From the sequence record PP216085: DNA of 64,000 bases; one strand, 5' to 3'. The stretch comes from Escherichia phage vB_EcoM_HZ_ZJUN4. Below are positions 1 through 41,715 of this stretch, in pieces; position 1 is the first letter of the stretch, and every line of letters begins with the position of its first letter. The notes below the pieces were generated by a model. The model saw only the letters and a program-made list of their open reading frames with translations. It was not told where the DNA came from and did not search any database. A program made the position numbers and the translations under genes.

Positions 1-1566
1 AAAGGAATGCTTGAGAACGGGTTTAAGCTTGGTAATGCACAGATTGAAACCCCTAAATCAATCGGCGTTGCTACTGCAATTATGGCACAAATTACTGCAC
101 AGGTTGCTTCCCATCAATACGGTGGAACGACTTTTGCGAATGTAGATAAAGTCCTTTCTCCTTATGTTAAACGCACCTATGCAAAACATATTGAAGACGC
201 GGAAAAATGGCAAATCACTGATGCGTTGAATTATGCCCAATCTAAAACAGAAAAAGATGTATACGATGCGTTCCAAGCTTATGAATATGAAGTAAATACT
301 CTCTTTAGTTCAAACGGACAAACGCCTTTTGTAACAATTACATTTGGTACGGGAACTGACTGGACTGAACGAATGATTCAGAAAGCAATTCTGAAAAATC
401 GTATTAAAGGTCTTGGTCGTGACGGGATAACTCCTATTTTCCCTAAACTTGTTATGTTCGTTGAAGAAGGTGTTAATCTTTATAAAGACGATCCGAACTA
501 TGATATTAAGCAGCTTGCTCTAGAGTGTGCAAGCAAAAGAATGTATCCTGATATTATTTCAGCTAAGAACAATAAAGCTATCACCGGTTCATCTATTCCT
601 GTTTCTCCAATGGGTTGCCGTAGTTTCTTGAGCGTATGGAAAGATTCGACTGGTAATGAAATTCTTGATGGACGTAATAATCTTGGTGTTGTAACACTGA
701 ATCTTCCTCGCATTGCACTAGATTCTTATATTGGAACACAGTTCAATGAACAGAAATTTGCCGAATTGTTCAATGAGAGAATGGATTTATGTTTTGAAGC
801 ATTGATGTGTAGAATTAGTTCCTTAAAAGGAGTTAAAGCTACTGTTGCTCCTATTCTTTACCAAGAAGGTGCATTCGGGGTTCGTCTTAAACCTGATGAC
901 GATATAATTGAGTTATTTAAAAACGGTAGAAGTTCAGTGTCCCTAGGATACATTGGTATTCACGAATTGAATATTCTTGTCGGTCGTGATATTGGACAAG
1001 AAATTTTAACTAAAATGAATACTCATCTTAAGCAGTGGACTGAAAGAACCGGTTTTGCTTTTAGCTTGTATTCTACTCCTGCTGAAAACCTGTGCTATCG
1101 CTTCTGTAAACTTGATACTGAGAAATATGGAAGTGTAAAAGATGTTACTGATAAAGGATGGTACACTAATAGTTTCCATGTTTCAGTAGAAGAAAATATC
1201 ACTCCGTTTGAAAAGATTTCTCGTGAAGCACCATATCATTTCATTGCGACAGGTGGTCACATTTCTTATGTTGAACTTCCTGATATGAAAAATAACTTAA
1301 AAGGTCTTGAGGCTGTATGGGATTATGCTGCGCAACATTTAGATTATTTTGGCGTTAACATGCCAGTAGATAAATGTTTTACGTGTGGAAGTACCCATGA
1401 AATGACTCCTACTGAAAACGGATTTGTTTGTTCTATTTGTGGAGAAACTGATCCTAAAAAGATGAACACAATAAGAAGAACTTGTGGTTATTTGGGAAAT
1501 CCGAATGAACGCGGATTTAATCTTGGCAAAAATAAAGAAATCATGCATAGGGTTAAACACCAATGA
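1..1566 (+). CDS. nrdD: anaerobic ribonucleoside-triphosphate reductase NrdD, C-terminal ~520 codons (5' end upstream of window)
   Basis: ORF runs from window edge; C-terminal glycyl-radical motif RRTCGYLGN and Zn-ribbon CFTCGS..CSICGE; followed by nrdG as in T-even phages; no intron in visible part. Confidence 0.9.
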   Translation, partial: KGMLENGFKLGNAQIETPKSIGVATAIMAQITAQVASHQYGGTTFANVDKVLSPYVKRTYAKHIEDAEKWQITDALNYAQSKTEKDVYDAFQAYEYEVNTLFSSNGQTPFVTITFGTGTDWTERMIQKAILKNRIKGLGRDGITPIFPKLVMFVEEGVNLYKDDPNYDIKQLALECASKRMYPDIISAKNNKAITGSSIPVSPMGCRSFLSVWKDSTGNEILDGRNNLGVVTLNLPRIALDSYIGTQFNEQKFAELFNERMDLCFEALMCRISSLKGVKATVAPILYQEGAFGVRLKPDDDIIELFKNGRSSVSLGYIGIHELNILVGRDIGQEILTKMNTHLKQWTERTGFAFSLYSTPAENLCYRFCKLDTEKYGSVKDVTDKGWYTNSFHVSVEENITPFEKISREAPYHFIATGGHISYVELPDMKNNLKGLEAVWDYAAQHLDYFGVNMPVDKCFTCGSTHEMTPTENGFVCSICGETDPKKMNTIRRTCGYLGNPNERGFNLGKNKEIMHRVKHQ

Positions 1567-2402
1567 ATTACGATAGATTTTATCCCTGTGATTTTGTGAA
1601 TGATAAATTATCTTTAATATTTGAAGAAAATAATGATTTACTATTGTCATATGTTGATTTGATAACAAAAAATTATAATAATCCTAAAATAAAAGGAAAA
1701 ACGGAAGCACATCACGTGCTTCCCAAATCTATATTTCCCGAATATAAAACAGATAAATGGAATATTGTTAATTTGTCATATTATGACCACGCGTTAGCTC
1801 ATTACTATTTAGCTAAAACAAGTAATAGTAAAATGTGTTATGCCTTTCATAGAATGATAAACTCGAATACCGATAGATTTAATACAGATGAATTGGATGA
1901 AATTCTTAAATTGTATTCCAGTGAAAAGGAATTATTTCACCGCTCTATGTCAAAATTATCGAAAAATATATGGAAGGATGACGATTTTAGAAAAAGACAT
2001 AGAGAACTAACTAAGTTAGCAATGCAAAAACCTGAAGTTAGAAATAAAACTTTATTAAATTTGTCAAATGCAATGAAAACTGACGAAGTTAGAAATAAAA
2101 TTTCCAGGCTAACTAAGTTAGCAATGCAAAAACCTGAAGTAAAAGAAAAACATAGAAATTCATTGAGGTTGGCGTATGCAAATCCTGAGGTTATGAAAAG
2201 AAAACATCAACGTCTTCGAGAAAAATATACTCTTAATTTATTTGGCGCATATAAAGATGGTGTTCTTTTAAAAACATTTAATTATATACCAGACGCAGCA
2301 AAATATTTTAATATTTCTAGCAAAGGAAATATTTTAAAATGTTTAAATGGCGAACGTAAAAGTGTTGAAGGCTATAATTGGAAATATATAAATGAATTAT
2401 GA
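1563..2402 (+). CDS. HNH-family homing endonuclease-like protein (Mob-like)
   Basis: 279-aa ORF with HH..N..H core (EAHHVLPKS...NLSYYDHALAHYYL) resembling T4 Mob HNH proteins; ATGA overlap with nrdD stop; first 13 codons near-identical to nrdG start; internal repeated DNA-binding-like motifs. Confidence 0.65.
   Translation: MNYDRFYPCDFVNDKLSLIFEENNDLLLSYVDLITKNYNNPKIKGKTEAHHVLPKSIFPEYKTDKWNIVNLSYYDHALAHYYLAKTSNSKMCYAFHRMINSNTDRFNTDELDEILKLYSSEKELFHRSMSKLSKNIWKDDDFRKRHRELTKLAMQKPEVRNKTLLNLSNAMKTDEVRNKISRLTKLAMQKPEVKEKHRNSLRLAYANPEVMKRKHQRLREKYTLNLFGAYKDGVLLKTFNYIPDAAKYFNISSKGNILKCLNGERKSVEGYNWKYINEL
2007..2143 (+). repeat. direct repeat of ~34 bp (ctaactaagttagcaatgcaaaaacctgaagt) about 100 bp apart inside the HNH gene
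   Basis: Two near-identical copies starting at 2007 and 2109 encoding LTKLAMQKPEV; gaagttagaaataaa also recurs. Confidence 0.8.
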
Positions 2403-39341: not shown

Positions 39342-39368
39342 ATTCCCGAAACCAAACGAGGATAAGTG

Positions 39369-40919
39369 ATGATTAAGAATGAAATTAAAATTCTAAGCGA
39401 TATTGAACATATCAAAAAGCGTAGCGGCATGTATATTGGCTCTTCTGCTAATGAAATGCATGAGCGCTTTCTGTTTGGTAAATGGGAAAGTGTTCAGTAT
39501 GTACCTGGTCTTGTTAAGCTTATTGATGAAATTATCGATAACTCAGTAGATGAAGGTATTCGTACTAAGTTTAAATTCGCAAATAAAATTAATGTTACTA
39601 TTAAAAACAATCAAGTAACAGTTGAAGATAACGGTCGTGGTATTCCACAAGCGATGGTTAAAACACCTACCGGTGAAGAAATTCCTGGTCCTGTTGCTGC
39701 ATGGACTATTCCAAAAGCAGGCGGTAACTTTGGTGATGATAAAGAACGCGTCACTGGCGGTATGAACGGTGTTGGTTCTAGTTTAACTAACATTTTTTCT
39801 GTGATGTTTGTCGGTGAAACTGGCGACGGTCAAAATAATATTGTAGTTCGTTGTTCAAATGGCATGGAAAATAAATCATGGGAAACTATTCCTGGAAAAT
39901 GGAAAGGAACTCGCGTTACTTTCATTCCTGATTTTATGTCATTTGAAACTAATGAGCTATCTCAAGTTTATCTTGACATTACACTAGATCGTCTCCAGAC
40001 ACTTGCAGTAGTTTATCCTGATATTCAATTTACCTTTAATGGTAAAAAGGTTCAGGGTAATTTTAAGAAATATGCACGCCAATATGATGAACACGCTATC
40101 GTTCAAGAACAAGAAAATTGTTCTATTGCGGTTGGTCGTTCACCCGATGGTTTTCGTCAATTAACATACGTCAATAACATTCATACTAAGAATGGTGGCC
40201 ATCACATTGACTGCGTTATGGATGATATTTGTGAAGACCTTATTCCACAAATCAAACGTAAGTTCAAAATTGACGTAACTAAAGCACGTGTTAAAGAATG
40301 TTTGACTATCGTTATGTTTGTTCGTGATATGAAAAACATGCGATTTGATTCTCAAACTAAAGAGCGTCTGACTTCTCCATTTGGTGAAATCCGTAGTCAT
40401 ATTCAGCTTGATGCTAAAAAGATTTCACGTGCTATTTTGAATAATGAAGCAATTTTAATGCCAATCATTGAAGCTGCCTTGGCTCGTAAATTGGCGGCAG
40501 AAAAAGCAGCAGAAACTAAAGCAGCTAAAAAGGCTTCTAAAGCTAAGGTTCATAAACATATTAAAGCGAATCTTTGCGGTAAAGATGCTGATACTACTCT
40601 TTTCTTGACTGAGGGTGATTCTGCTATCGGATATCTTATTGATGTTCGTGATAAAGAACTTCATGGTGGTTATCCATTGCGTGGTAAAGTTCTTAACAGT
40701 TGGGGTATGTCATATGCTGATATGCTTAAAAATAAAGAACTGTTTGATATTTGCGCAATCACTGGATTAGTTCTTGGTGAAAAGGCGTTTGAAGAAAAAG
40801 AAGATGGCGAGTGGTTTACTTTCGAACTAAATGGCGATACAATTATCGTAAATGAAAATGATGAAGTACAGATTAATGGTAAATGGATAACAGTAGGTGA
40901 ATTACGAAAAAATCTATAA
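39369..40919 (+). CDS. 39: DNA topoisomerase II large subunit gp39 (GyrB-like ATPase), N-terminal part of split gene
   Basis: 516 aa from ATG 39369; GHKL ATPase motifs (NSVDEG, GRGIP, GGMNGVGSS). Confidence 0.9.
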   Translation: MIKNEIKILSDIEHIKKRSGMYIGSSANEMHERFLFGKWESVQYVPGLVKLIDEIIDNSVDEGIRTKFKFANKINVTIKNNQVTVEDNGRGIPQAMVKTPTGEEIPGPVAAWTIPKAGGNFGDDKERVTGGMNGVGSSLTNIFSVMFVGETGDGQNNIVVRCSNGMENKSWETIPGKWKGTRVTFIPDFMSFETNELSQVYLDITLDRLQTLAVVYPDIQFTFNGKKVQGNFKKYARQYDEHAIVQEQENCSIAVGRSPDGFRQLTYVNNIHTKNGGHHIDCVMDDICEDLIPQIKRKFKIDVTKARVKECLTIVMFVRDMKNMRFDSQTKERLTSPFGEIRSHIQLDAKKISRAILNNEAILMPIIEAALARKLAAEKAAETKAAKKASKAKVHKHIKANLCGKDADTTLFLTEGDSAIGYLIDVRDKELHGGYPLRGKVLNSWGMSYADMLKNKELFDICAITGLVLGEKAFEEKEDGEWFTFELNGDTIIVNENDEVQINGKWITVGELRKNL

Positions 40920-41715
40920 TGACTTAATAGTGCGGGGTAAAACCCGCGTTTCTAAATTTAAGGGTGAAATTCATCATATCCTTCCAAGATCAATGGGAGG
41001 TTCTGATGATAAAGAAAATTTGGTGAAACTGACTTTTCGTGAACATTTTTTAGCACATTTTCTACTATATAAAATTCATCGTAATCGTGAAATGGCATAT
41101 GCGATGAATAGAATGTTAAACACTGAAAAATATTTACGTTCTAGTAAATTATATGAAATTACTAGAATTTACCATCAAAGAGCAGTATCTGAATGGTCAA
41201 AAAACTTTATGAAAGATAAAGTTTTAATGAGAAGTATTAAATCGGGTAAATGCGCCTTATTAATTAAAGGATCATTTAACCCAAAGGAATGGTGCGGTGT
41301 TAATAAAGGTGTTAAGCTTCCTGGAATTAAAGGCATGACATGCTTTAAAAATGAAAAAGGCGAAGTTTTTCGTCTTCATGTTAATGATCCACGCATTAAA
41401 GCTGAAAAATTAGTTGGTATTGGAAATACTGTTGCTGCTACTGCAAAAGCAGCTGAACTTGAAAAAGCGAAACCATGGTATAATAAATCAGCGACAAATC
41501 CAGAGGCTGTAAAATTAATACCAAATTTATATGAATGGTACGTCACGAAATATGACCCCGATCATTATAAACGAACGGGAGTTGCTAAATGGAAATCAGT
41601 TAATAATATAACTGTGAATTCAAAATTATTCGGCCGAGCATTTAATGAATTTAAACGCGGTTGGATTCCTGATGAAAAGTTCTATGAGGTGTATAATGAA
41701 ATTTGTAAAAATTGA
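40897..41715 (+). CDS. mobA: HNH homing endonuclease (MobA-like) between genes 39 and 60
   Basis: 272 aa; EIHHILPRSMGGSDDKENLVKLTFREHFLAHF HNH core; overlaps 39 end and 60 start. Confidence 0.7.
   Translation: MNYEKIYNDLIVRGKTRVSKFKGEIHHILPRSMGGSDDKENLVKLTFREHFLAHFLLYKIHRNREMAYAMNRMLNTEKYLRSSKLYEITRIYHQRAVSEWSKNFMKDKVLMRSIKSGKCALLIKGSFNPKEWCGVNKGVKLPGIKGMTCFKNEKGEVFRLHVNDPRIKAEKLVGIGNTVAATAKAAELEKAKPWYNKSATNPEAVKLIPNLYEWYVTKYDPDHYKRTGVAKWKSVNNITVNSKLFGRAFNEFKRGWIPDEKFYEVYNEICKN

Follow-up and report, generated by a model that had tools for sequence, protein, structure and literature searches.

Homing endonucleases consist of a nuclease joined to strings of small DNA-binding modules, and the gain of new targets is usually ascribed to shuffling of these modules. 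The gene described here encodes a protein of this kind. It is an open reading frame (ORF) of 279 amino acids (aa) at 1563-2402 (+ strand) of a 64,000-nucleotide (nt) stretch of Escherichia phage vB_EcoM_HZ_ZJUN4 (record PP216085); this whole stretch, referred to below as the window, is a Tequatrovirus (T4-like) genome segment. By analogy with described enzymes, we consider it probable (roughly 0.7) that the product is a modular homing endonuclease whose nuclease is followed by a DNA-contacting linker of five helices, and that a direct repeat inside the linker has mediated the loss of two helical units.

Several features of the closest described systems bear on this gene. NUMOD3 modules form minor-groove helices ahead of a helix-turn-helix (HTH) domain in I-TevI, I-HmuI and I-BmoI; I-BmoI has three predicted NUMOD3 repeats, and its linker positions the nuclease relative to the anchor (PMC3664794). 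HNH homing enzymes nick one strand only, and in phage T4 mobC is found at nrdG/nrdD and mobE at nrdA/nrdB (PMC2988022). Within the His-Me finger nucleases, the Mob proteins belong to group 1 and I-HmuI to group 2, or HNH_3 (PMC5714182).

The direct repeat and the helical array

The sequence-only reading of the window had reported a 34-bp sequence present twice about 100 bp apart. Two exact copies were indeed found with starts 102 nt apart, and their length is 32 nt rather than 34 (copy 1, 2007-2038; copy 2, 2109-2140; both on the + strand). The 32-nt string occurs exactly twice in the window and was absent from all 100 dinucleotide-preserving shuffles; the number of exact repeats of such length expected within the ORF is about 1e-11. 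When mismatches were allowed, the pair extended to 42 nt at 90% identity (2007-2048 and 2109-2150). LTKLAMQKPEV is encoded by each copy, the next residue being R for copy 1 and K for copy 2, and EVRNK occurs at aa 158-162 and again at aa 175-179; both points had been read correctly from the sequence.

The copies belong to a longer periodic array. Tandem Repeats Finder reported 2.7 copies of a 51-nt period at 2006-2140, 51 nt corresponding to 17 aa, and a separate repeat search gave three 34-nt copies at 51-nt spacing. The lag-17 BLOSUM62 autocorrelation of the protein had z = 6.1, with 0 of 5000 shuffles as high. Five basic units of 17 aa each were delimited at aa 140-224 (1980-2234, + strand), beginning at aa 140, 157, 174, 191 and 208 with the pattern [PD][ED][VF][RKM]x[KR]; in order, their sequences are DDFRKRHRELTKLAMQK, PEVRNKTLLNLSNAMKT, DEVRNKISRLTKLAMQK, PEVKEKHRNSLRLAYAN and PEVMKRKHQRLREKYTL. 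AlphaFold2 (AF2) predicted one helix for each unit (aa 140-155, 157-170, 174-188, 191-206 and 208-228). The isoelectric point (pI) of aa 126-224 is 10.8, with 28 K/R versus 11 D/E, and that of the HNH domain is 5.9. A hidden Markov model (HMM) of these Pro-Glu-Val (PEV) units, built without the window's clade, detected three of the five.

The nuclease precedes the array. PHROG 655 ("homing endonuclease", 1.6e-36) and PHROG 12434 ("HNH endonuclease", 3.4e-15) matched the N-terminal two thirds of the protein, and phmmer against the whole library returned 2383 relatives at E ≤ 1e-3. The Pfam HNH models gave no match to the window protein at E ≤ 1, homologues of the protein gave weak matches to PF01844, and an NCBIfam search of the protein yielded nothing meaningful. 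The catalytic motif of the HNH (His-Me finger) type, H50 H51...N67...H76...H80 in a beta-beta-alpha arrangement, is encoded at 1710-1802 (+ strand). Residues H50, H51, P54, N67, L71, H76 and H80 were invariant in an alignment of 38 sequences, and the AF2 core consisted of strands 47-51 and 68-72 followed by a helix at 73-86, with a predicted local distance difference test (pLDDT) score above 90. The best fold neighbours in BFVD were MobD-like proteins, a T2 homing endonuclease, a VR7 protein, T4 MobB and proteins of RB43 annotated as "nuclease associated modular domain", and MobE proteins were also matched. By sequence and predicted fold, the ORF is a Mob-family HNH homing endonuclease, annotated already but uncharacterised, and the HNH assignment made from the letters of the DNA was supported.

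A domain of beta-beta-helix-turn-helix-beta form, like that of I-HmuI and NUMOD1, was predicted after the array at aa 228-276 (2244-2390, + strand). The HMM check that the sequence-only reading had proposed for its repeats, a search for NUMOD1 and NUMOD3, was negative for the repeats, and the only NUMOD-type matches fell outside them, at aa 235-272, both below cutoff (PF22083, 21.1 bits, cutoff 27; NUMOD1 PF07453, 17.3 bits, cutoff 22.8). In P0007, a full-length homologue, the aligned C-terminal segment scores above the cutoffs of both NUMOD1 and PF22083. The AF2 model of aa 201-279 contained a helix, a beta-beta element, an HTH and a final strand, with a core pLDDT of 82-88 from a multiple sequence alignment of nine sequences only; a homologue search with aa 126-279 alone returned only P0003 and gave no extra sequences for this alignment. 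The best match of the model among 350,542 PDB chains was I-HmuI, an HNH enzyme in complex with DNA (1u3e; E 0.012, TM score 0.63, 78 columns).

The order of parts would then be a Mob-type HNH nuclease (aa 1 to ~125), the array of five helical "PEV[RK]xK" units (aa 140-224) and a beta-beta-HTH anchor similar to that of I-HmuI (aa 228-276). By analogy with I-HmuI, I-TevI and I-BmoI, the HTH domain would most likely anchor the enzyme, with the basic helices tracking the DNA through sparse backbone or minor-groove contacts. The array may fix how far the HNH nick lies from the site bound by the HTH anchor, in which case removal of two units (34 aa) would shorten the reach or change the footprint.

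Loss and homogenisation of units

Exactly the 34 residues that separate the two copies are missing from three distinct proteins, namely P0003 (242 aa), P0010 (245 aa) and P0015 (245 aa). The sources of these deletion alleles were the Logan assemblies of ERR2241743 (contig L002) and SRR16571696 (L005) and the ENA metagenome scaffold ERZ28574463 (L004, sample SAMN11098507). The ERR2241743 contig has a clean in-frame deletion of 102 nt, with one copy of the 32-mer and three units left. Alignment of its DNA with the window placed the absent segment (two units) at 2039-2140 or, equally, at 2007-2108 (+ strand), and the placement is ambiguous, the breakpoint falling within the 32 nt that the copies have in common. 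The junction expected in reads of the deletion alleles is ...GACATAGAGA[A/G]-CTAACTAAGTTAGCAATGCAAAAACCTGAAGT-AAAAGAAAAACA, and those expected of the five-unit allele are copy1-TAGAAAT and TTTCCAGG-copy2.

Unit number also varied among more distant proteins. The VR7 homologue (226 aa) has its HNH domain joined straight to the C-terminal domain with 0 units, P0075 has about eight, and HMM counts in 142 Mob-type relatives ranged from 0 to 5. Obvious recent unit duplications were seen in the arrays of P0164 and P0113. The suggestion that such modules are recombination-prone and should be compared in number among related phages was thus well founded: the number varies, and a natural deletion of 102 nt lies between the exact copies.

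Units 2 and 4 are identical at 39 of 51 nt, 32 of them contiguous, and every other pair of units at 20-29 of 51. A simple recent tandem duplication of 102 nt was considered and ruled out, as units 3 and 5 share only 20 of 51 nt and units 2 and 4 share 39; the identity of units 2 and 4 is therefore a patch and not a whole duplicated block. Relative to the window, three Klebsiella-phage orthologues carry the synonymous change TTA>CTA in both copies. Synonymous AAA>AAG is present in both copies in two of these three phages and in copy 2 only in UTI-K1, where copy 1 has AAT. In phage PST, TTA>CTA is found in copy 1 only. The concerted changes suggest gene conversion between units.

On the modular reading, short-patch gene conversion would keep units 2 and 4 identical, the 32-nt tract being the most recently homogenised part. 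Unequal recombination between the identical tracts, or slippage on them during replication, may then delete exactly two units without a change of frame, and the resulting 3-unit alleles would be those that circulate in nature.

Weighing the modular reading

A number of results speak against this reading. Pfam NUMOD3 (PF07460, cutoff 20.4 bits) gave no match to the window protein at E ≤ 1, and a NUMOD3-unit HMM built here found no domain of at least 6 bits in it. Comparison of 119 PEV-type with 84 NUMOD3 units by hhalign gave a probability of 90.7% (E 1.2e-6; register P-E-V-R = E-E-T-K), and this profile comparison is partly circular, both kinds of unit having been collected by regular expressions with the same E-x-[KR]-x-[KR] core. 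A PDB sequence search with the whole protein returned nothing relevant, and the full-length AF2 model had no PDB match at E ≤ 0.001 in Foldseek, a comparison that is probably dominated by the arbitrary relative orientation of the helices. The concerted signal consists of two sites only, with a chance probability that we estimate very roughly at 0.004-0.04, and the copies differ within PST and within UTI-K1. The deletion was present in 0 of the 31 GenBank phage genomes that carry the gene, all of which have the full 840 nt, and of the three deletion contigs, two come from Logan assemblies made with k=31, for which an exact repeat of 32 nt is at the limit of resolution.

The description of the repeats as NUMOD-like tandem modules therefore held in part: the repeats themselves do not pass Pfam NUMOD3 or NUMOD1, but tandem modules do stand at the position that NUMOD3 occupies in relatives. 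Homologues detected by profile often have PF07460 annotated in the stretch from the HNH domain to the C-terminus. P0007 is 32% identical to the window protein (pairwise E 3e-24); its segment in the alignment is MKNPEVRAKMSEAIKG, the window counterpart being MKTDEVRNKISRLTK, and its unit NPEVRAKMSEAIKG, aligned to TDEVRNKISRLTK of the window, passes NUMOD3 with 23.6 bits versus the cutoff of 20.4. The S, A and K columns downstream, which lie outside the pattern used for selection, coincide in the alignment of the PEV and NUMOD3 profiles. P0062, P0064 and P0066 have mixed arrays, with an "LWNDPDFRKRK" unit beside classical "HHSEETKHKI" units, and both kinds of unit were found in 14 of the 142 Mob-type homologues. 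The relatives rich in PEV units (P0164, P0190, P0217 and P0191) gave no NUMOD3 match either.

The PEV-type repeat was also found with several nuclease domains. It accompanies a GIY-YIG domain in P0191 and P0217, and in P0164 by a motif read from the sequence, for which Pfam made no call. It accompanies an HNH or HNH-like domain in P0160 (Pfam-supported), in P0190 and P0150 (weak HNH/AHH matches) and in the Mob-family relatives P0075 and P0076, and a DUF559/Vsr-like nuclease in P0113. The Pfam label of the repeat in all these proteins is either GerD or none. We conclude from the alignments and models that the units probably work like NUMOD3 modules but form a distinct subtype, with a Pro-Glu-Val cap and no Gly turn; as they fail the curated test of Pfam NUMOD3, they were not filed under that name. 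A wider proposal is put forward only tentatively. The 17-residue "PEV[RK]xK..S.A.K" helix could be a distinct nuclease-associated module, unrecognised by domain libraries, related to NUMOD3 and common to HNH, GIY-YIG and Vsr-like homing endonucleases, with a copy number adjusted through recombination among its homogenised units. In that case, the natural alleles with five and three units would test whether module number sets the distance from anchor to cut, and hence the choice of target.

The helices might instead be a protein-protein element, that is, a GerD-like rope or a coiled-coil spacer for oligomerisation, which might bring two nicking HNH sites together, or simply an inert tether. The best Pfam match of the window repeat region was GerD (PF17898; 18.9 bits, below the cutoff of 29.5), and GerD passes the cutoff in the PEV-repeat relatives P0113 (39.9 bits), P0191 (41.0 bits) and P0160 (31.2 bits). 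A "KDPEF"-type helix N-cap repeat is attributed to the GerD sequence, and this common repeat is the simplest explanation of the matches; the assignment in P0113, P0160 and P0191 looks like a repeat-driven false one, and the match in the window is regarded as a similarity of repeat composition. The AF2 helices are long and regular, as such an element would have them, and the nicking of one strand by HNH homing enzymes gives dimerisation a rationale (PMC2988022). The repeat region is highly basic, however, the units hold the NUMOD3 position in homologues and mix with NUMOD3 in single arrays, and the predicted structure of the last helix and C-terminal domain can be superposed on the half of I-HmuI that binds DNA. 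We therefore regard a protein-protein role as improbable.

The evidence from assemblies bears on a second alternative, in which the short alleles are artefacts: real phages would all have five units, the identical tracts would be a neutral leftover and the repeat would be without evolutionary consequence. Besides the full-length genes of GenBank and the k=31 contigs mentioned above, a search for the repeat as an exact pattern had 0 hits for either allele in each of IMG/VR, JGI metagenomes and GTDB genomes, which fits such an artefact. One deletion allele, however, comes from an independent ENA metagenome scaffold, and the three alleles differ from each other in neighbouring single-nucleotide polymorphisms, in a 2-nt indel and in the nrdD intron, which is present in the ENA ERZ28574463 allele and absent from that of Logan SRR16571696. 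Moreover, the Logan contigs run unbroken through the repeat for 4.3 and 25.8 kb, where the assembly would be expected to break had the graph contained both paths. This continuity and the ENA scaffold argue for the two-unit deletion as a real polymorphism, and an artefact appears unlikely.

The copies also contain a pairing element in their DNA. A near-palindrome, (G)CTAAC-TAA-GTTAG(C), is found in each (2007-2020 and 2108-2121), and the predicted RNA fold joins copy 1 and copy 2 in a long-range stem of ~13 bp (minimum free energy -24.3 kcal/mol, z = -2.5, 1 of 200 shuffles as stable); an inverted-repeat search gave 93% complementarity between the copy arms. Such pairing could favour slippage. 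As the Klebsiella-phage orthologues have not kept the palindrome, it is not regarded as a selected element. That the repeat is first of all a nucleic-acid element, its copies pairing in mRNA or single-stranded DNA with a regulatory or recombinogenic effect and the protein repeat being secondary, is very improbable: the stem could bring the direct repeats together, but its z-score is modest, the Klebsiella TTA>CTA alters the palindrome in both copies without compensation, the protein periodicity covers five units and thus far more than 32 nt, sigma-70-like promoter sites are not in excess (10 versus 9.1 in shuffles) and the sole terminator-like site is on the minus strand.

As a whole, the interpretation offered by the sequence-only reading is partly supported. 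What is new is modest: a PEV-type subtype that Pfam misses, a natural two-unit deletion and evidence of homogenisation between units. One gene nonetheless presents raw material for module shuffling, in the form of a homogenised pair of units, a two-unit deletion and relatives with 0 to 8 units, and it becomes possible to test directly what linker length does in an HNH enzyme that nicks DNA. The PEV repeat subtype is also an annotation gap, being missed by Pfam NUMOD3 and sometimes labelled GerD. The locus is otherwise an ordinary, already annotated T4-type mobile endonuclease.

The locus and its relation to known systems

The endonuclease gene lies between the 3' part of nrdD (7-1566, + strand; Pfam NRDD, 2.3e-148) and nrdG (2392-2862, + strand; Pfam Fer4_12, 3.4e-48). 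Its ATG overlaps the nrdD stop codon (ATGA), and its final 11 nt overlap the start of nrdG. By megablast the 840-nt gene was present in 31 phage genomes, and every copy is flanked by nrdD and nrdG. Twenty-one of the carriers are Tequatroviruses of Escherichia, Shigella, Yersinia and Salmonella, at 97-99.5% identity, and the other 10 are Klebsiella phages at ~85% identity, the two with full taxonomy being Jiaodavirus. The gene is annotated in these 31 genomes as "homing endonuclease" or, in phage PST, as "mobC". A further 67 records from the same search matched only the first 40 nt of the query, and all those listed lie at the nrdD/nrdG junction; this 40-nt stretch is a 100% match in phages that lack the homing endonuclease gene (HEG). 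In RB51, the one HEG-less junction examined, nrdD and nrdG abut directly. Presence or absence at a conserved nrdD/nrdG site is the pattern expected of a free-standing homing endonuclease gene, as the protein had been called from its sequence.

Comparison with RB51 also located the edges of the insertion. Window positions 1540-1602 are identical to the RB51 nrdD/nrdG junction (578-640 of L006), and divergence begins after ...TTTGTGAATG. The first 13 codons of the ORF (1563-1602, + strand) are thus the native 5' end of nrdG, to which the endonuclease is fused in frame, and a second, recoded nrdG 5' end (~40 nt, 2392-2431) is present at the 3' edge of the cassette. The recoded copy differs from RB51 at 10 of its first 30 nt (F6I, D10C), while nearly all later 30-nt blocks match at 27-30 of 30. 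It may mark the target site of the enzyme and protect the HEG+ allele from cleavage. We read the endonuclease gene as a selfish cassette that entered nrdG in frame behind codon 13, at the site of T4 mobC. The T4 mobE site was ruled out as its equivalent, since the published review puts mobC at nrdG/nrdD (PMC2988022).

Some carriers showed further changes at this locus. A 2-nt insertion (AT) just ahead of the nrdG start was observed in contig L002 of ERR2241743 (1690-1705) and in Klebsiella phage KP01 (L013); in these alleles the endonuclease ends three codons early (…WKYI*) and the overlap with nrdG is gone. In BF15 (L015, 101-941) the gene is 841 nt long, is annotated from an internal start only (228 aa) and was returned by tblastn in two pieces, which fits a frameshifted copy in decay. 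The nrdD gene of endonuclease carriers was found with a group I intron containing I-TevII (PST, L001; the ENA scaffold, L004) or without it (L005; the window), from which it follows that intron and endonuclease gene assort independently of each other.

Immediately after gene 39 (39366-40919), another ORF of the Mob-type HNH kind was observed at 40897-41715 (+ strand). It encodes 272 aa from a GTG start, shares 29% identity with aa 36-203 of the 279-aa ORF, overlaps the end of the topoisomerase large-subunit gene and is in a mobA-like position.

The central core of GerD (PF17898), a spore-germination family, has in common with the window units a repeated helix-cap motif, but it belongs to a spore lipoprotein and the units to a phage nuclease, and the window match does not reach the cutoff. 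In I-TevI and I-BmoI, as predicted for the window protein, short tandem basic helices with a period of ~17 aa lie between nuclease and HTH, and in the profile comparison the columns E-x-[KR]-x-K-h-S-x-A-x-K are common to both. The window units differ in that they are without the conserved Gly turn, start with Pro-Glu-Val and fail PF07460, and the catalytic domain of I-TevI and I-BmoI is of another kind (GIY-YIG).

I-HmuI of Bacillus phage SPO1 (1u3e) resembles the predicted layout of the window protein, with an HNH nuclease, one or more helical elements of NUMOD3 type and a C-terminal HTH. It is the best PDB match of the C-terminal model, and the I-HmuI_NUMOD-like Pfam model is the best one for that region, though sub-threshold. 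I-HmuI is nevertheless in a different His-Me finger group and is intron-encoded, whereas the window protein is free-standing. The window protein has five 17-aa helices in contrast to the NUMOD3 helical module of I-HmuI, and its full-length model fails to retrieve 1u3e.

SegH/Hef has reportedly been found by Sandegren et al. (2005) in place of mobC and mobE. T4 MobC is like the window protein in its nrdD/nrdG site, its borrowed nrdG start codons, its architecture, its Mob-type HH..N..H motif and its C-terminal "GY.WKY..EL". T4 mobC joins nrdG after codon 7, however, and the window gene does so after codon 13. By our own reading of its sequence, T4 MobC (210 aa) has classical units of the "RSDKTKKLMS" type and no PEV array. 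The two proteins are only 38% identical, over 60 aa of the HNH motif only, and the T4 protein closest to that of the window is MobD (32%). The window gene is therefore a different Mob-family allele at the mobC site, and, as T4 MobC differs in sequence and in units, the label "mobC" in phage PST is positional.

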